This document shows, piece after piece, positions 1,017-51,098 of a stretch of DNA of 64,000 bases. The DNA is taken from the NCBI GenBank assembly GCA_001871495.1, contig MNVG01000007.1:4322-68321 (forward strand). The letters are read 5' to 3'. The position numbers and the translations under genes are program-made. The first letter of the stretch is position 1, and the number at the start of each line of letters is the position of its first letter. The notes beneath the pieces were generated by a model, which saw only the letters and a program-made list of their open reading frames with translations, had not been told where the DNA came from and searched no databases. This DNA comes from Candidatus Micrarchaeota archaeon CG1_02_51_15 (GTDB lineage: Archaea > Micrarchaeota > Micrarchaeia > Norongarragalinales > UBA8480).

Positions 1017-1096
1017 AACACCGCAATAACTATAACCGGCCTGCTAAAAAAAGAGTGCGTTATCAAGAAACACTATCGCCAATCGAATAAAGAAAG

Positions 1097-1245
1097 CGGG
1101 CTCGGCGGGATTTTCGGCCAAGCAAAAGCTGCAAAGCGTAGCATTTGCCTTGATTCGAACCCACGACCCCCTGGTTGCCTCCGAGATTCCGTTTTAAAGA
1201 ATTCGTTAAAAGCCAGGTGCTCTAGCCAAGCTGAGCTACGAGCCC
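1097..1245 (-). tRNA. tRNA-Lys(UUU) with two introns: canonical anticodon-loop intron and a 43-nt intron in the T-loop
   Basis: Minus-strand read: acceptor GGGCUCG pairs with CGAGCCC; D-arm GCUC/AGCUUGGCUA/GAGC; anticodon arm CCUGG-CUUUUA(intron)A-CCAGG; T-arm GUGGG-UUCGAAU-C(intron)CCGC. The mature length is about 75 nt after removing about 31 nt (anticodon loop) and 43 nt (T-loop, plus 1109..1151). A TATA-like element lies upstream. Confidence 0.6.
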
Positions 1246-1364
1246 GTTAACCTTGTTTTTATACAGCATTAAATAACTTTGTTTGCTTAAATAATCGGCT
1301 GGCGCCGCCTTTTTTCAACGGCGAATCGATTAAGTAAAACTTTTTTGAACAAGAGGTATTTGAA

Positions 1365-2021
1365 TTGAGGATTGTCTTATTGGGAGCCCCGGGAGCCGGT
1401 AAAGGAACGCAAGCCAGGCTGCTGGCGACGCACTTCATGATTCCTAACGTAGGCACGGGCCACATGTTCCGTGCAGCCGCCTCGGCAGACACCGAACTCG
1501 GCCGCGAAGTGAACAAATTCATACGCGAAGGCGCATTGGTTCCCGACGATATCGTAGTACGAATAGTGAAAGAACGGCTTTCCCACGCCGACGTAAGTAG
1601 CGGCTTCGTACTAGACGGATTTCCACGCACAGTACTTCAAGCCAACGAATTGGATGAAGCGCTTGAAGAAAAAGGAAGGAAGCTCGACGTAGTAATCTCG
1701 ATTGAAATAAAGGAATCTGAGTTGATAGAACGGCTTTCGCACCGCCGCACGTGCAGGCACTGCGGAACGGTTTACAACACGCTCTTCGAAAAACAACGGC
1801 CTAAAGAAGAAGGGGTTTGCGACAGGTGCGGCGGCGAGCTCGTCCAACGAAACGACGAAAATCCGGAAGTAATCAAGGAACGCCTGCGCATCTTCAACGA
1901 AAACAACGAACCGCTAGAAAAATACTATTCCAAGAAAGGGCTGCTCAAAAAAGTAGGAGCGTCCAACTACCTTACACCCCAACACGTTTTCGCAGACGTG
2001 CTGGCGGCACTCGCGAAGTAA
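1365..2021 (+). CDS. adk: adenylate kinase, bacterial-type long form with zinc-binding lid
   Basis: TTG start. P-loop GAPGAGKGTQ. Lid with CRHCG...CDRCGG (two CxxC pairs). Confidence 0.9.
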   Translation: MRIVLLGAPGAGKGTQARLLATHFMIPNVGTGHMFRAAASADTELGREVNKFIREGALVPDDIVVRIVKERLSHADVSSGFVLDGFPRTVLQANELDEALEEKGRKLDVVISIEIKESELIERLSHRRTCRHCGTVYNTLFEKQRPKEEGVCDRCGGELVQRNDENPEVIKERLRIFNENNEPLEKYYSKKGLLKKVGASNYLTPQHVFADVLAALAK

Positions 2022-9168: not shown

Positions 9169-9294
9169 GCAGGGGTGGCAGAGTCTGGTCAAACCCGCTT
9201 GTTTTTCACGGTCGAAACCAGGAGGGAACTTGATGCGCAGGACTCAGAATCCTGTGGCCTAGCGCCTGCGAGGGTTCAAATCCCTTCTCCTGCA
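9169..9294 (+). tRNA. tRNA-Leu(CAG) with a 39-nt non-canonical intron in the D-arm (between positions 22 and 23)
   Basis: Acceptor GCAGGGG pairs with CUCCUGC (one G-U). D-stem GCAG / C+(intron 9195..9233)+UGC. Anticodon arm CAGGA-CUCAGAA-UCCUG. Long variable arm. T-arm GAGGG-UUCAAAU-CCCUU. Discriminator A. The ORF 9175..9459 is spurious. Confidence 0.6.
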
Positions 9295-9488
9295 CTCTTA
9301 CTTATTAAGCTCGATTTGGCTACTGCCTTTAAGACATTCTGCAAGCCCGAAAAAGTCGTCGGCATGTCCTTCCAAGCCGCGGGATTGGCGGCGCCGATAC
9401 CTTTCCGACGGTACGCGCACTCAAACCGCGTTTATAACACAGCTTATTCTAAACTTTAAAACATACTTCACATATCAACATTAAACAC

Positions 9489-15347: not shown

Positions 15348-15421
15348 TGGGGACGCCGAGATTTGAACTCGGATCGCCAGATCCCGAATCTGGTAGGCTA
15401 ACCAGGTTGTCCCACGTCCCC
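15348..15421 (-). tRNA. tRNA-Pro(CGG), intron-less
   Basis: GGGGACG/CGUCCCC acceptor. D-loop AACCUGGUUA. Anticodon arm CCAGA-UUCGGGA-UCUGG. T-arm CCGAG-UUCAAAU-CUCGG. 74 nt. One D-stem mismatch. Confidence 0.75.
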
Positions 15422-15533
15422 ACGTAATTAAAACAAAACAATATTTTGCGGCCTCGGAATTAAAAACAGGCATTATCACCGGTTTTAAGTGAAGCGTTTC
15501 AAGCACTTGCTTCCGCGCTTGAAAAAAAGCTTA

Positions 15534-15690
15534 CGGGCCTGGAGGGATTTTCGCACAAGCGAAAAAACTGCAAAACGCAACGTTTTGCTTGCATTTGAAC
15601 CCTCGACCTCGTGCTGGCTTCCCGTCTTTCCCCCGACTTCGGAAAAAAAGTTAGAAGGCACTTGCGCTATCCAGGCTGCGCCACAGGCCC
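15534..15690 (-). tRNA. tRNA-Arg(UCU) with two introns: canonical intron (about 35 nt) and a 46-nt T-loop intron related to that of tRNA-Lys
   Basis: Acceptor GGGCCUG/CAGGCCC. D-arm GCGC-AGCCUGGAUA-GCGC. Anticodon arm AGUGC-CUUCUA(intron)A-GCACG. T-arm GAGGG-UUCAAAU-(intron, plus 15547..15592)-CCCUC. Discriminator G. TATA (tttatat) lies about 30 nt upstream. This explains the GC-rich region that has no ORF; ORFs 15485..15757 and 15489..16217 are spurious. Confidence 0.55.
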
Positions 15691-15867
15691 ACGCGCAATA
15701 TTCTTGGAGCCGCGCGGATATAAAGTTTTTTAACTCGGCAAACCCTTTGGTTCTCAATGATCCAACTAGGCTGCCTGCCGCTGAAACTGGCTTTCGACCC
15801 CAAGACGCTCGCGCTGCGCCTCAACGGCCGAAAACTCGTACCGTCATTCGAGCGGACCGTAGGCGAA

Positions 15868-41496: not shown

Positions 41497-42948
41497 GTGA
41501 TGCATTTGGCAACGGGAGACGCAAGACAGTTTTTGAAGACACTTAACGACAAGCAGAAGGCCTACGTGGACTTCGGCCTGAAAAACCCGCGCAACGGCGA
41601 GTACATGCTCACTGCCTTCAGGCTGGTTCCAGGCCGCGGCCTTAATTTCCTGCAAGCAGCCGCTGAAATAGCCGCCGAGTCGTCCACCGGAACCAACTTC
41701 AAGGTTCAAACAGAAACCGCATTCTCGCGAGAAATGAACGCCCTCGTTTACCAAGCCGACTCCAAGCGAAACCTTGTTTGGATTGCGTACCCTTGGCGGC
41801 TGTTCGACCGCCGCGGAAACGTCCAAAACATCCTCACTTACTTAGTCGGAAACGTTTTGGGAATGAAGGAAGTCGACGGCCTCAAGCTGTTGGACGTGTG
41901 GTTTCCACCTGCGATGCTCGAACAATACGACGGACCAAGCTACACGCTAGACGACATGCGCAAGTACCTGAAGGTCTATAACCGCCCCATTTTAGGCACA
42001 ATAGTAAAGCCAAAGATGGGCTTGACTTCCGCAGAGTACGCCGAAGTATGCTACGACTTCTGGGTCGGCGGAGGCGACTTCGTAAAAAACGACGAGCCGC
42101 AAGCCGACCAGGACTTCTGTCCCTATTACAAAATGGTCAAACACGTCAAGCAGGCGATGGACAAGGCAATCAAAAAAACTGGGAAGAAGAAAGTGCATTC
42201 GTTCAACGTGTCGGCAGCCGACTGCGACACGATGATAACGCGGTGTGAAATGATTCGCAACGCCGGCTTCGAACCAGGAAGTTACGCCTTCCTCATAGAC
42301 GGAATAATGGCAGGCTGGACCGCAGTCCAGACGCTGCGGCGGCGTTATCCCGACGTGTTCATCCACTTCCACCGTGCAGGGCACGGTGCGTTCACGCGGC
42401 CCGAAAACCCGTTTGGTTTTTCCGTGCTCGTACTCTCCAAGTTCGCGCGGCTTGCAGGCGCTTCAGGAATCCACACTGGCACAGCAGGCGTAGGCAAAAT
42501 GAAAGGCACCCCCGAAGAAGACGTGGTCGCAGCACACAACATACTGCACTTCAAAGACAAGGGCCACTTGTTCGAACAGGAATGGAACTTGATCCCCGAA
42601 AACGACAAGAACGCAATCGAACTGGTCCATTTGGACTTAGCACACCACGTCATCCTCGAAGACGATTCCTGGAGGGGAATGAAGAAGTGCTGCCCAATTG
42701 TTTCAGGCGGATTAAATCCCCTGCTGCTCAAGCCGTTCATTGACATGATGGGAAACACGGACTTCATAACAACAATGGGGGCCGGCTGCCACGCGCACCC
42801 TGAAGGAACCAAAGCAGGTGCAACTGCACTAGTTCAAGCCTGCGACGCCCAGCAAAAAAGAATACCCCTCGAAAAATACGCTAAAACTCACAAGGAACTT
42901 GCAACGGCAATAAAGTTTTTTGGAAAGAAAAAACGCAGGCCGGAATAA
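41497..42948 (+). CDS. rbcL: ribulose-1,5-bisphosphate carboxylase/oxygenase large subunit, form III (archaeal)
   Basis: AAESSTGT, GTIVKPKMGLT, GGGDFVKNDEP, HFHRAGHG and GGL motifs. No small subunit gene adjacent. 483 aa. Confidence 0.9.
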   Translation: MMHLATGDARQFLKTLNDKQKAYVDFGLKNPRNGEYMLTAFRLVPGRGLNFLQAAAEIAAESSTGTNFKVQTETAFSREMNALVYQADSKRNLVWIAYPWRLFDRRGNVQNILTYLVGNVLGMKEVDGLKLLDVWFPPAMLEQYDGPSYTLDDMRKYLKVYNRPILGTIVKPKMGLTSAEYAEVCYDFWVGGGDFVKNDEPQADQDFCPYYKMVKHVKQAMDKAIKKTGKKKVHSFNVSAADCDTMITRCEMIRNAGFEPGSYAFLIDGIMAGWTAVQTLRRRYPDVFIHFHRAGHGAFTRPENPFGFSVLVLSKFARLAGASGIHTGTAGVGKMKGTPEEDVVAAHNILHFKDKGHLFEQEWNLIPENDKNAIELVHLDLAHHVILEDDSWRGMKKCCPIVSGGLNPLLLKPFIDMMGNTDFITTMGAGCHAHPEGTKAGATALVQACDAQQKRIPLEKYAKTHKELATAIKFFGKKKRRPE

Positions 42949-46749: not shown

Positions 46750-47049
46750 GTGGTAGCCAAAAAAGGAAAGACCGCCAAGAAAATCGATACTAGTTTTAAT
46801 GTAGAAAATATAGTTGCAAGTGCGAACCTCAAAGTCGAGCTCGACTTGTTCAACATTGCAATGAACATTGACAACGTAGAATATGAACCGGAGCAATTCC
46901 CAGGCGCTATAATGCGACTCAAAGAAATCGGCACCACGTTGTTGCTCTTCAAGAACGGCAAGGTGATCTGTAGCGGTGCAAAAAACGAAAAACAAATTGC
47001 AGCCAGCATAGCAAAGGCAGTTGAATTACTCCGGGAGTATATCACGTAA
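46750..47049 (+). CDS. single-repeat TATA-box-binding-protein-like protein (half-TBP, 99 aa)
   Basis: GTG start 9 nt after a GGAGGG Shine-Dalgarno-like motif. K-rich N-tail, then exactly one TBP repeat: NVENIVASANLKVELDLFNIAMNIDNVEYEPEQFPGAIMRLKEIGTTLLLFKNGKVICSGAKNEKQ. Flanking genes leave no space for a second repeat. Confidence 0.7.
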   Translation: MVAKKGKTAKKIDTSFNVENIVASANLKVELDLFNIAMNIDNVEYEPEQFPGAIMRLKEIGTTLLLFKNGKVICSGAKNEKQIAASIAKAVELLREYIT

Positions 47050-47097: not shown

Positions 47098-47216
47098 GCG
47101 ACAGCGGTCATAGGAGTGGGGCAAGACCCGTTCCCTTTCCGAACACGGAAGTCACTCCCGCTTACGACTGCGCCAGTACTGTTCTGATGAACGGGAAAAC
47201 CGGTTTCTGCTGTCAC
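47098..47216 (+). rRNA. rrf: 5S ribosomal RNA (stand-alone)
   Basis: GCGACAGCGGUCAUAGG...CCGAACACGGAAGU...GCUGUCAC. Helix I pairing GACAGC/GCUGUC, conserved loop C/helix III motif. About 120 nt. The minus ORF 46746..47216 is spurious. Confidence 0.8.
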
Positions 47217-47262: not shown

Positions 47263-48288
47263 CTAACCAACTATTACGTCCAGCACTACTTCGTCTTCGA
47301 ACGGAGAATAATGTAAGACCGCGCGTTTGCTGATTATTCTACATTTTCGTCCCGCTTTTGCGCAAGCGGCGCGCACAAGCGACGAAGGCTTGCTAAAGGC
47401 ATCGAGCGTGTTTCTTTCGACATCCCTCCTTTGTCCAAAAGAATAGAAATGAACCACGCCCCCTCGCTTGAGCACCGCCAGCGCGCCGTCAAGGAATTCA
47501 TGGGCCGAATGAGGCAACGGCATTACCACTCGGTCGAACGCGCCGCAGTTGACGGGTTTTGCACAGAATTTTGCAGCGTCGGCGCGCACGGCTTTCACGC
47601 GACCGATAACCTTGTTTGCTTCAATATTTTTTTCAAGAAACGGAATTGCGTTCGGATTGAGTTCGACTGCCACGAAATGCGCAAGCGGCTGTTTTTTGGA
47701 ACCTATTATGGCAAAGGGACCGACACCTGCGAACAGCACGAGCACGCGCTCGCCTTCTTTGACCTGCACGGCAATGCGTTCGCGTTCGAATGAAAGACGG
47801 GAAGAAAAGTAAACCAATGCAGGGTCTACTGCAAACGAACAGCCGCTCTCACGGTGCACTGTTTCCGTGTCCCTGCGGCCTACGAGTACGCGCAGGCGGC
47901 GTACTCGGTACTTGCCGCTAAAAGCGCTCTTAAGCGCGACGCAACAGATGCGGGGATTGGTTTCAAGCAATATGCGCGCAGCTTCACCTGCCTTTCCAAT
48001 AGATTCCGCATCGATTAGCGCAACATCGCCTATTAGGTCAAAAGGAAATTCCAGAGCAGTTGGCTTGGACTTGTTTGGCTGAAAGCGGGCGCGAGTTATT
48101 TCGTGTTCGAATGGAAGGACCACAGACGCATCGCGGGAGATGGGAAACAGGATGAATTCTTTTTTCTTCAAAGGAGCGTATTCGTGCGAAAGGACGTTTT
48201 CACTAAGGAGAAACCGTTTGGCCCGCTCTGCGTCTTTAAGCCTGACTTTAACTGCTTTCAAAACGCGTTTGGCAACCGGATTCATCAT
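47263..48288 (-). CDS. trm5: tRNA (guanine37-N1)-methyltransferase Trm5 (Trm5/TYW2-Taw2 family)
   Basis: Class I MTase with LVLFAGVGPFAI and VELNPNA (Trm5/TYW2 motifs). About 340 aa from the internal Met. The basic 47-aa N-terminal extension in the ORF track is probably not translated. Confidence 0.7.
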   Translation of the reverse strand: MMNPVAKRVLKAVKVRLKDAERAKRFLLSENVLSHEYAPLKKKEFILFPISRDASVVLPFEHEITRARFQPNKSKPTALEFPFDLIGDVALIDAESIGKAGEAARILLETNPRICCVALKSAFSGKYRVRRLRVLVGRRDTETVHRESGCSFAVDPALVYFSSRLSFERERIAVQVKEGERVLVLFAGVGPFAIIGSKKQPLAHFVAVELNPNAIPFLEKNIEANKVIGRVKAVRADAAKFCAKPVNCGAFDRVVMPLPHSAHEFLDGALAVLKRGGVVHFYSFGQRRDVERNTLDAFSKPSSLVRAACAKAGRKCRIISKRAVLHYSPFEDEVVLDVIVG

Positions 48289-48320
48289 TGTTTTAAAACT
48301 TTGGCTGCTTAAAGGTTTTT

Positions 48321-49175
48321 GTGGACTTTTCTTCTTTTTTGGATAGTTATTTCTTAGAGCCATTGCGCAGGCCCGGAGAAGCCGCGCCTTACAATTGGGC
48401 GAATACGCTAGCGTACGCAGTTGCCGCATTGGTTGCTACTTTTGCAATATTCAAGGGCTTGCAACGGCTCAAAATAAAAATAGACGGAAAATTTTTTGCG
48501 GCAATACTGCCGTTCGTGTTATTCGGCAGTGCACTGCGAGTTGCCCAGGACGCAGGAACGTTGCCGCGCGCAGTCGATTTTTTCGGGCTCGAACTTTTTC
48601 CATTCGTGACTCCCGGGATTTATTTGATTACTTTTGGGCTGGTCGCACTGTCTATTGACGCGGCGCTTGCTGTTGAAAAAAAAACAGGCATTCCGTTATG
48701 GAAGACAGTCGGAGGAATCGGCTTGATTCTAGCGTTAGGCGCCTTGCTTCCCGCATTGGGGATTGCCAAGTATTGGTTGCACGGCTTGCTGGCTCTGCTT
48801 ATGGGCTGTAGCGGCATATTGTTGTTCAAACTGGCTGCAGTAGCGTTCAAGCACAGGACGGAATGGATGGAACACGCGGCGGTTTTCGGCCAATGTTTTG
48901 ACGGCGCGGCAACGTTTGTTGGAATTGGAATAGGCACGCCTTCGGCACAGTATTTCGAACAGCACGCTGTAGGCGGCACCTTGATTGAAGCAGCGGGTCC
49001 GCTGGCATTCTATGCACTTAAGGTAGTGTTCGCGCTGGCAGCGGTTACGATTGTGCGAAACGAGTTCATTAAAAAAGAGGACGCCGAAAAGAAGACTTAT
49101 GTACTGTTGCTGCTTACTATCTTCGGCTTGGCGCCTGGAGCACGCGACGTCCTTAGGATAATGGCAGGAGTTTGA
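48321..49175 (+). CDS. polytopic integral membrane protein (archaeal DUF63-like)
   Basis: 284 aa with seven or more TM helices. Its stop overlaps the start of the next gene (ATGA). Confidence 0.5.
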   Translation: MDFSSFLDSYFLEPLRRPGEAAPYNWANTLAYAVAALVATFAIFKGLQRLKIKIDGKFFAAILPFVLFGSALRVAQDAGTLPRAVDFFGLELFPFVTPGIYLITFGLVALSIDAALAVEKKTGIPLWKTVGGIGLILALGALLPALGIAKYWLHGLLALLMGCSGILLFKLAAVAFKHRTEWMEHAAVFGQCFDGAATFVGIGIGTPSAQYFEQHAVGGTLIEAAGPLAFYALKVVFALAAVTIVRNEFIKKEDAEKKTYVLLLLTIFGLAPGARDVLRIMAGV

Positions 49176-50138: not shown

Positions 50139-51098
50139 TTAAGAAAACAACAGACGTTGCCTTGCAGCTTCAGCATCGCGGCATAATAGTACTACCCGCG
50201 AAGGAATGTGTTCGACAGAATACAAATATCCGGTTTGACTCGCGAGTTCCGCTGCAAATACGGTTATTTCTTGATGTGAAGGCATTGCCTGCACGCCCAA
50301 CCGCTCGCGGCTTGAACCAAGCGCCATCCATGCTTTTACTTCACAGTAATCACAGCCACTGGCCTTGATTATTTCAGAGTATTCTTTAGCGCGGCCAAAA
50401 TTGAATCCCTTTGCCAAGGTCATGCGCAGTACAGTACGGGTTTGTCCTTGCAACCTCTTCATTTCCGCAATTGACTCCAAAAACGCGAGCCATGCACTGG
50501 AAGAGAGGTTTCCGCTGGCTTTGGCAAATGACGCCGCATCCCACGCGTTCAGCGAGAGATATAACTGGGTTGGCAACGCGTGCTCTTCTTTCAAAAGCCG
50601 CAGTACTTCAGGATGCAAGCCGTTTGAAACCACGAAGGAAGTCATTTTTCGATCCCGTATTTCCTTAATTAGTTCCGAAAGACGAGGATAAAGAGTCGGC
50701 TCACCCATCAACGAAATGGCGACGTGCAGGGGTGCCTGCGCTTCTTCGAGCCGAGATACGTCGGCTTTTGGGTTGCCTGCAAACCCGTTGAGCAAATGCC
50801 GTTGGGCCTCGATTGCCGAATCGATTATTTCCGAAGGGGAGTCGGCAGCGCCTTGCCAGGTTTTGCCTAAGAACGAGGTTTCACGCCAGCAGTGGGGACA
50901 GGAATTATCGCAATACATTCCGGCTGCAAGTTGAAGACACCGCCAACTCCTTATTCCATAGAAAGCGTGTTTGTAACACTCGCCTCCGCCAATAAGCGCT
51001 TTCTTGGTCCAAGCGCATACCTTTATTGCAGCATGTTTCGACGGCCCGACAAAGAAATAGCCTGCGCGCATCATTTGCCCTGCTTGTAAAGAATCCAT
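50139..51098 (-). CDS. taw1: tRNA 4-demethylwyosine synthase Taw1 (TYW1, radical SAM)
   Basis: KVCAWTKKAL, GGECYKHAFYGIRSWRC and radical SAM YCDNSCPHCWR all follow the archaeal Taw1 pattern. 319 aa. Confidence 0.8.
   Translation of the reverse strand: MDSLQAGQMMRAGYFFVGPSKHAAIKVCAWTKKALIGGGECYKHAFYGIRSWRCLQLAAGMYCDNSCPHCWRETSFLGKTWQGAADSPSEIIDSAIEAQRHLLNGFAGNPKADVSRLEEAQAPLHVAISLMGEPTLYPRLSELIKEIRDRKMTSFVVSNGLHPEVLRLLKEEHALPTQLYLSLNAWDAASFAKASGNLSSSAWLAFLESIAEMKRLQGQTRTVLRMTLAKGFNFGRAKEYSEIIKASGCDYCEVKAWMALGSSRERLGVQAMPSHQEITVFAAELASQTGYLYSVEHIPSRVVLLCRDAEAARQRLLFS

Follow-up and report, generated by a model that had tools for sequence, protein, structure and literature searches.

Two tRNA genes of a Micrarchaeota archaeon carry related T-loop introns of a family that appears to have spread among tRNA genes

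The DNA analysed here, a stretch of 64,000 nucleotides (nt) of contig MNVG01000007.1 (hereafter the window), belongs to Candidatus Micrarchaeota archaeon CG1_02_51_15, an uncultured ultrasmall archaeon of the DPANN phylum Micrarchaeota. It contains two tRNA genes, tRNA-Lys(UUU) and tRNA-Arg(UCU), both on the minus strand, and each of them is interrupted twice, once in the anticodon loop at the canonical position 37/38 and once in the T-loop at 59/60, which is a non-canonical site. The T-loop inserts of the two genes are homologous, and their relatives occupy the same position in other tRNA genes of this genome and of related genomes. Both genes very probably encode pre-tRNAs with two protein-spliced bulge-helix-bulge (BHB) introns, of which the 59/60 intron belongs to a family that was copied among tRNA genes. 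Proteins encoded in the window are identical to those of CG1_02_51_15 (AUJ65_00565, AUJ65_00510) and to those of an HA318-tagged Third Party Annotation (TPA) metagenome-assembled genome (MAG) from groundwater metagenomes.

An original prediction, made from the letters of the sequence, had placed the two genes at 1097..1245 and 15534..15690, and had stated that each folds into a cloverleaf only when two segments are removed, one of them a canonical anticodon-loop intron. The coordinates were confirmed, and the rest of this description agreed with our results. Removal of two segments from each locus gave full cloverleaves of 75 nt, which ARAGORN called as tRNA-Lys(ttt) and tRNA-Arg(tct). In the unspliced 64-kb window neither locus was called by ARAGORN or by Rfam at the gathering threshold; ARAGORN called only tRNA-Leu(CAG) and tRNA-Pro(CGG), to which Rfam added a 5S rRNA. 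The parts of the two genes are as follows (evidence in brackets).

1097..1245, minus strand: tRNA-Lys(UUU) gene with two introns, precursor of 149 nt (in-silico splicing and ARAGORN, minimum free energy structure of the precursor, synteny)
1207..1245, minus strand: Lys exon 1, positions 1-37
1176..1206, minus strand: Lys canonical 37/38 intron, 31 nt
1154..1175, minus strand: Lys exon 2, positions 38-59
1111..1153, minus strand: Lys T-loop intron at 59/60, 43 nt, UCAAGGCAAAUGCUACGCUUUGCAGCUUUUGCUUGGCCGAAAA (BHB fold, covariance model, intron-less ortholog L209)
1097..1110, minus strand: Lys exon 3, positions 60-73, discriminator G, CCA not encoded
15534..15690, minus strand: tRNA-Arg(UCU) gene with two introns, precursor of 157 nt (in-silico splicing and ARAGORN, synteny)
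15652..15690, minus strand: Arg exon 1, positions 1-37
15616..15651, minus strand: Arg canonical 37/38 intron, 36 nt
15594..15615, minus strand: Arg exon 2, positions 38-59
15548..15593, minus strand: Arg T-loop intron at 59/60, 46 nt, UGCAAGCAAAACGUUGCGUUUUGCAGUUUUUUCGCUUGUGCGAAAA (covariance model, BHB conformer, similarity to the Glu and Asn introns)
15534..15547, minus strand: Arg exon 3, positions 60-73

After splicing, the predicted T-loop exon junctions (marked by a slash) read GGGUUCGAA/UCCCGCC in tRNA-Lys and GGGUUCAAA/UCCCUCC in tRNA-Arg.

Alignment of the two T-loop inserts gave 74% identity with z = 6.6, and none of 5000 dinucleotide shuffles reached the score. When the first base and the terminal CGAAAA were left out, the remaining core still gave z = 4.6 (0 of 5000 shuffles), so that the homology proposed in the original prediction holds both for the whole inserts and without the ends that the splicing motif constrains. 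The RNA strings quoted there were correct; among the words said to be shared, one block did not stand as given: what the inserts have in common there is UUUGCAG, Lys reading GCUUUGCAG and Arg GUUUUGCAG. The anticodon introns of the same two genes resembled each other at chance level (z = 0.27), and all comparisons of anticodon introns and T-loop inserts with other introns gave z between -0.5 and 1.4. A covariance model of the T arm plus intron found exactly two copies in the window, at 75.1 bits (Arg) and 62.6 bits (Lys). The next match in the window scored 15.9 bits (E = 0.028) at 46805-46859, minus strand, in the spacer that lies upstream of the 5S rRNA gene; no tRNA-like context was seen there, and the match is probably due to chance. 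Family members scored 58.6-82.4 bits with this model (R1), and other archaeal 59/60 introns with the same ends reached at most 39 bits. The family consensus is U(G)CAAGC-AAAA...UUUU-C-GCUUG-YG-CGAAAA. Its basal helix CAAGC/GCUUG and the UUUUGCAG block are kept in sequence, without covariation, and only the T stem in the exons covaries; an invariant basal helix is what is expected for recent copies.

For the splice sites we used the rule of two 3-nt bulges with 4 base pairs (bp) between them and cleavage after the second bulge base. The cleavage position within the bulges is said to go back to work by Marck and Grosjean in 2003 and by Xue et al. in 2006. The 3-4-3 BHB motif is used as stated in PMC3239211. 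By sequence alone the boundary of the T-loop insert is free to shift over four positions, since AAU is repeated at the end of the insert, and the mature tRNA product is identical whichever boundary is taken. An insert of 43-46 nt directly after the T-loop UUC(G/A)AAU had been proposed; the size was right, and the BHB geometry moves the boundary from behind U60 to 59/60. In the T-loop motif so obtained, the T stem (49-53/61-65) adjoins a 3' bulge A-A-U60, a central helix is formed by U54-U55-C56-R57 with intron CGAA, and the 5' bulge consists of A58-A59 and the first intron base, followed by the intron hairpin.

Folding of the exon-intron junctions found this T-loop motif in both genes. For Lys, the cloverleaf with the T-loop BHB (helix UUCG/CGAA) and the anticodon-intron hairpin is the minimum free energy structure (MFE) of the whole precursor. 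In Arg, an MFE with two hairpins is more stable than the BHB conformer by 2.4 kcal/mol. The earlier statement that each insert forms two hairpins is thus true of the Arg MFE and not of the Lys MFE, in which the insert makes up the BHB as a single long, irregular hairpin. Across eight family members, 95% of the cells of the BHB-plus-hairpin structure pair, as against 24-58% when the partners are slid. The anticodon introns have motifs of their own. The 37/38 site of tRNA-Lys allows a strict 3-4-3 BHB, drawn by hand (C32-G, U33.G, U34-A, U35.G; bulges UAA and CAA), and the inner helix CGA/UCG of this intron is present in the MFE; in the MFE of the Arg 37/38 intron the anticodon stem is followed by a 3' bulge CCA, by the helix CUUC(U)/(G)GAAG and by the intron hairpin. 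The RNAalifold consensus of the T-loop family favours another element, a 3' hairpin UUUUCGC-UUGY-GCGAAAA, which is invariant in seven of the eight members, forms part of the Arg MFE and sequesters the CGAA that the BHB requires. We take this hairpin as an alternative conformer and not as counter-evidence to splicing. The folds support the view that the T-loop inserts behave as BHB introns at a non-canonical position in different tRNAs; splicing itself we infer from them.

An enzyme that could cut such introns is encoded by the same genome outside the window, in which a Pfam scan of 68 open reading frames (ORFs) found no splicing endonuclease. Residues 11-385 of the 385-aa tRNA-intron lyase EndA (OIO22351.1, P0254) align full length to 4fz2 (E = 4e-119), the structure of the epsilon2 EndA of ARMAN-2 (PMC3488258), and the protein retains the GTYK of the ARMAN-specific loop (ASL). 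According to PMC3239211 and PMC3488258, ARMAN-2 EndA cuts a 59/60 intron with a relaxed BHB in vitro and requires the lysine of the ASL. By its sequence, the enzyme of CG1_02_51_15 is an ARMAN-2-like epsilon2 endonuclease of the type with broad substrate range.

The family is not confined to the two genes in the window. It is also present in tRNA-Glu(UUC) (L168/L179) and tRNA-Asn(GUU) (L169), and these copies are in the same genome, because the proteins encoded at the loci are identical to CG1_02_51_15 proteins AUJ65_04210, AUJ65_01055 and AUJ65_01050. A count of copies of the approximately 45-nt intron, which the original prediction had called for, thus gives two in the window and at least four in the genome. 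The Arg T intron is 91% identical to that of Glu and 89% identical to that of Asn. Pattern, covariance-model and blastn searches turned up nothing more in the window or in the 10 kb beyond its right end, and every family copy seen in the window and in the fetched loci sat in a tRNA T-loop. Among relatives the family has the following distribution.

Sv246: tRNA-Lys(UUU) and tRNA-Arg(CCG)
MAG245: tRNA-Lys(UUU), tRNA-Arg(UCU) and tRNA-Arg(GCG)
Genome of the L202/L209 contig: tRNA-Arg(UCU), a diverged copy

In total six isoacceptor types (Lys(UUU), Arg(UCU), Glu(UUC), Asn(GUU), Arg(CCG) and Arg(GCG)) in four related Micrarchaeota genomes contain the intron. This clade is much younger than the tRNA isoacceptor families, and one intron sequence in six of them therefore requires copying.

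A complete metagenome scan for the 3' half of the family gave 79 loci, six of which were true family members, the tRNA-Glu(UUC) and tRNA-Asn(GUU) of CG1_02_51_15 being two of these. Species-representative genomes were scanned with the pattern GGGTTCRAAT-N25-55-CGAAAATCCC, which gives a distribution and not counts, so that its values are lower bounds. About half of the matches listed were bacterial chance matches, with an intact T arm and CGAAAATCCC further downstream. Real 59/60-intron tRNAs among the matches listed were from Micrarchaeota, Thermoplasmata, Methanosarcinales, Bathyarchaeota, Naiad-, Nano- and Aenigmatarchaeota and Asgard archaea; 59/60 is therefore a general archaeal insertion site. 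Only some of the Micrarchaeota 59/60 introns among these matches resemble the introns of the window. In the Thermoplasmata MAG AUK033 (JAGGSX01), tRNA-Arg(CCU) and tRNA-Gly(UCC) have 59/60 introns of 48 nt that are 100% identical (L048:3004-3061 and L099:2272-2333). Judged by these sequences, the pattern of copies between tRNAs occurs in another phylum as well.

Similarity among the T introns follows the genome and not the identity of the tRNA. The mean identity was 82% between different tRNAs of the same genome, 69% when syntenic orthologs from different genomes were compared, and 73.5% where both differed. The tRNA-Lys anticodon introns follow orthology, with 69-81% identity (73-81% for orthologs of the window gene), and exon identity is 65-77% between different tRNAs and 87-99% between orthologs. 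Three of the four tested members with a UUCA T-loop (A57) have an uncompensated CGAA, namely the window Arg, the Glu copy of the same genome and the Arg of MAG245. A compensating UGAA opposite UUCA was found only in the diverged L202 copy.

Presence and absence of introns in syntenic genes point the same way. Orthologs of the window tRNA-Lys, located between the PIN_9 and adenylate kinase genes, were found at L211, L212, L209 and L187; orthologs of the tRNA-Arg adjoin the glucose-6-phosphate isomerase gene and tRNA-Pro at L069 and L202. The window, Sv246 (L211) and MAG245 (L212) have the Lys(UUU) T intron, and the syntenic L209 gene, with an intact T-loop, lacks it. The T arm of L209 is exactly the predicted mature T arm, which delimits the Lys insert. 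Other introns show presence and absence in the opposite direction: tRNA-Lys of MAG245 (L212:1334-1500, minus strand) and L209:2760-2920 (minus strand) has a D-loop intron that the window Lys lacks, and tRNA-Arg(UCU) of MAG245 (L069:1966-2140, minus strand) and L202:9786-9940 (minus strand) has a third intron, placed by hand at about 28/29 in the anticodon stem, that is missing from the window Arg. Intron content therefore turns over fast in this clade. The original prediction had taken related introns at one non-canonical position in different tRNAs as a sign of intron spread, and at least four genes, similarity that tracks the genome and the intron-less L209 ortholog all agree with that. Sequence comparison supports the view of an intron that has spread among tRNA genes or been homogenised between them.

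These observations can be combined in one scheme. The 3' CGAA of the intron would pair with the nearly universal U54-U55-C56-R57, leaving A-A-U60 as the 3' bulge beside the T stem; A58-A59 and the first intron base would form the 5' bulge and the remaining intron a long hairpin. The epsilon2-type endonuclease would cut both bulges, and an RNA ligase would join the exons and restore UUCRAAU. The parts of the motif that the exons supply, the T stem and the GUUCRAAUC loop, would be common to all elongator tRNAs and the intron would bring the rest. Because the exon-supplied parts are universal, a copy at 59/60 should be spliceable in any tRNA at once, unlike a 37/38 intron, which would have to fit each anticodon loop. 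The family would thus be copied among tRNA genes, kept similar within a genome and occasionally lost precisely. Candidate routes of copying are gene conversion across the conserved T arm, transposition at the DNA level and reverse splicing. UUCGAA is palindromic, and the intron end CGAAAAU mimics the exon before it, which would give short identical flanks that could support recombination.

Several observations weigh against this scheme. The central helix of the Arg BHB has an A57.C mismatch and competes with the more stable 3' hairpin, and the T-loop motif is relaxed, not strict, with a 5' bulge of 2-3 nt opposite 1-2 unpaired bases. The consensus also holds up well between genomes that share only 64% adenylate kinase identity, and the Glu intron of CG1_02_51_15 and the Lys intron of Sv246 are 91% identical; part of the similarity could therefore come from selection on the intron sequence and not solely from recent copying. 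In addition, intron-less second copies of these tRNAs may be present elsewhere in the genome.

The copying need not be passive. The 59/60 intron might be an active self-propagating RNA element, whose CGAA(AA) acts as a guide for homing to the palindromic T-loop UUCGAA of any tRNA, through reverse splicing followed by recombination or through recombination across the T arm. We consider this unlikely, and equally so its corollary, that several archaeal phyla would hold self-propagating 59/60 families independently, for which the identical introns of AUK033 speak.

Less likely again is a functional intron sequence, in which purifying selection and not copying keeps the paralogs alike; the roles that could be proposed, a protein-binding or regulatory hairpin, a switch between BHB and 3' hairpin, a stable circular RNA or shielding of the tRNA 3' half from integrating elements, are together just as improbable. 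The 3' hairpin, invariant in seven of eight members and preferred by RNAalifold, would fit such a function, as would the consensus kept across adenylate kinases of about 64% identity, and disrupted tRNA genes have been proposed to give protection against mobile elements (PMC3488258, PMC3239211). Selection, however, cannot put one sequence into six unrelated isoacceptors, so that copying is still needed. Moreover, the apical part of the intron is shared within genomes and differs between them, the Lys copy of the window has drifted to 74-78% identity with its paralogs, L209 lost the intron without visible replacement, and direct reading of both introns revealed no C/D-box motifs (RUGAUGA, CUGA).

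That the introns are independent and ancient, inherited vertically in each tRNA and alike by convergence under the constraints of the BHB and the T-loop, is very improbable. Introns at 59/60 that end in CGAAAA-U do occur in many archaeal lineages and tRNAs (among the matches listed), and pairing with UUCG fixes the terminal CGAAAA. The similarity nevertheless remains when the constrained ends are removed (z = 4.6), and other 59/60 introns with identical ends stay at or below 39 bits, as against at least 58.6 bits for the family. Convergence on a structure would also not account for a CAAGC/GCUUG helix and an UUUUGCAG block that are conserved in sequence and not by covariation, for similarity that tracks the genome and not the tRNA, or for a CGAA unadapted to UUCA in three of four members.

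That the loci are tRNA pseudogenes or remnants of a mobile-element or virus insertion, and not spliced genes, is barely credible: tRNA 3' halves are common integration sites and standard tRNA finders miss both loci, but the exons are intact and conserved, those of Lys being 99% identical to the L187 ortholog of an Sv246-type relative while the introns differ, the T stems covary, TATA-like boxes and T-runs are conserved, the inserts of 43-46 nt contain no ORF and are precisely delimited by the intron-less ortholog, and no copy was found outside T-loops (window and fetched loci) or in IMG/VR viral contigs, two scans of which gave one chance match only. The putative signals around the genes, read directly from the sequence with their function inferred, are listed below.

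1269..1276, minus strand: putative TATA box TTATTTAA, -24 to -31 of tRNA-Lys
1089..1095, minus strand: T-rich stretch TTTCTTT downstream of tRNA-Lys, likely terminator
15718..15724, minus strand: putative TATA box TTTATAT, -28 to -34 of tRNA-Arg, preceded by an A-rich run resembling a transcription factor B recognition element (BRE)
15522..15528, minus strand: oligo-T run downstream of tRNA-Arg, likely archaeal terminator

The putative TATA element of tRNA-Lys is kept upstream of its orthologs, as AAAGTTATTTAATG in L211 and L187 and as AAACTTATTTAAT in L212 and L209, and that of tRNA-Arg is kept in L202 and, as TTTTTTAT, in L069. The T-runs 3' of both genes are also conserved in the orthologs.

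Copying of BHB introns among tRNA genes, the reading we prefer, can be compared with known systems. In ARMAN-2 (Candidatus Micrarchaeum acidiphilum), 59/60 introns occur together with an epsilon2 endonuclease and 56% of the tRNA genes are disrupted, as described by Fujishima et al. 2011 (PMC3239211) and Hirata et al. 2012 (PMC3488258). The two organisms share the phylum, the 59/60 position, the relaxed BHB, the common occurrence of multi-intron tRNAs and the architecture of the endonuclease (a 385-aa protein, full-length alignment to 4fz2, GTYK loop). The ARMAN-2 intron tested in vitro, that of tRNA-Cys, is only 13 nt long and of the hBH type, whereas those described here are 43-46 nt long with a long hairpin and are known from sequence; in addition, PMC3239211 and PMC3488258 report no sequence family shared between different tRNAs.

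Such families have been described in Thermoproteales, where similar introns in diverse tRNAs were read as intron transposition (Fujishima 2010, as summarised in PMC4090602 and PMC4033280). The original prediction had drawn this parallel, which is apt for the pattern of shared introns and not for the host, a DPANN Micrarchaeote. Insofar as the review summaries allow the comparison, both systems have very similar introns across isoacceptors in related genomes, read as late gain or spread, and an endonuclease of broad specificity; they differ in the host lineage (Micrarchaeota, not Crenarchaeota) and in the enzyme (epsilon2, not (alpha-beta)2). Within the same limits, the present family is set apart from Thermoproteales in that every member was found at 59/60, with the universal T-loop as the exon half of the BHB. 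Canonical 37/38 BHB introns, one of which is present in each gene here, have the same splicing chemistry and motif logic. They pair with a tRNA-specific anticodon loop and are unrelated between Lys and Arg, whereas the T-loop intron pairs with an invariant exon and is shared.

The C/D box small RNA (sRNA) intron of euryarchaeal tRNA-Trp is likewise a tRNA intron with a conserved sequence. The window introns are at another position and have neither C nor D boxes, and do not belong to that class; a C/D box guide RNA was rejected, as neither RUGAUGA nor CUGA is present in either T-loop intron. A group I/II or homing-endonuclease intron was also rejected, in view of the length of 43-46 nt and the lack of an ORF and of a ribozyme core. 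A full-text search on Micrarchaeota, DPANN and tRNA introns found no paper specifically on a Micrarchaeota intron family. The kind of phenomenon is already known from the 59/60 introns of ARMAN-2 and the families of Thermoproteales; the shared T-loop family of Micrarchaeota is a new instance of it.

The other tRNA genes of the window have features of their own. The tRNA-Leu(CAG) gene (9169-9294, plus strand) has a D-loop insert of about 40-45 nt; Rfam aligns the gene with a 45-nt insertion, and ARAGORN calls only 9218-9295 of it. The window thus holds a third kind of disrupted tRNA, whose insert shows no sequence relationship to the T-loop family. The tRNA-Pro(CGG) gene (15348-15421, minus strand) lies 112 nt downstream of tRNA-Arg(UCU) and contains no intron; its D stem is irregular, with a non-standard pair according to Rfam. 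L069 and L202 keep the Arg-Pro tandem. An aberrant D arm has been reported for tRNA-Pro of ARMAN-2 (PMC3239211).

Among the protein-coding genes, the adenylate kinase gene next to tRNA-Lys (1365-2021, plus strand) has its nearest homologs outside Micrarchaeota in bacteria (Thermodesulfatator and Firmicutes, about 50% identity), which suggests that it was acquired horizontally. The window also encodes a RuBisCO large-subunit homolog (41497-42948, plus strand; Pfam RuBisCO_large and RuBisCO_large_N), L7Ae and several aminoacyl-tRNA synthetases. Two tRNA modification genes, for a Trm5/TYW2-family methyltransferase (47263-48429, minus strand) and a radical-SAM wyosine-formation enzyme (50139-51098, minus strand), flank the 5S rRNA region (47100-47215).

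Of the four tRNA genes in this 64-kb window, two escape standard finders and a third is called only partly. Because such genes are missed, tRNA inventories of MAGs, and the completeness estimates that use them, are biased in these lineages. Beyond Thermoproteales, the family extends the picture of tRNA-intron spread to DPANN Micrarchaeota and, as it appears, to Thermoplasmata too. It also suggests a simple reason for 59/60 being a hot spot: at this site the invariant T-loop serves as the exon half of the motif, so that one intron sequence could be removed from any tRNA.

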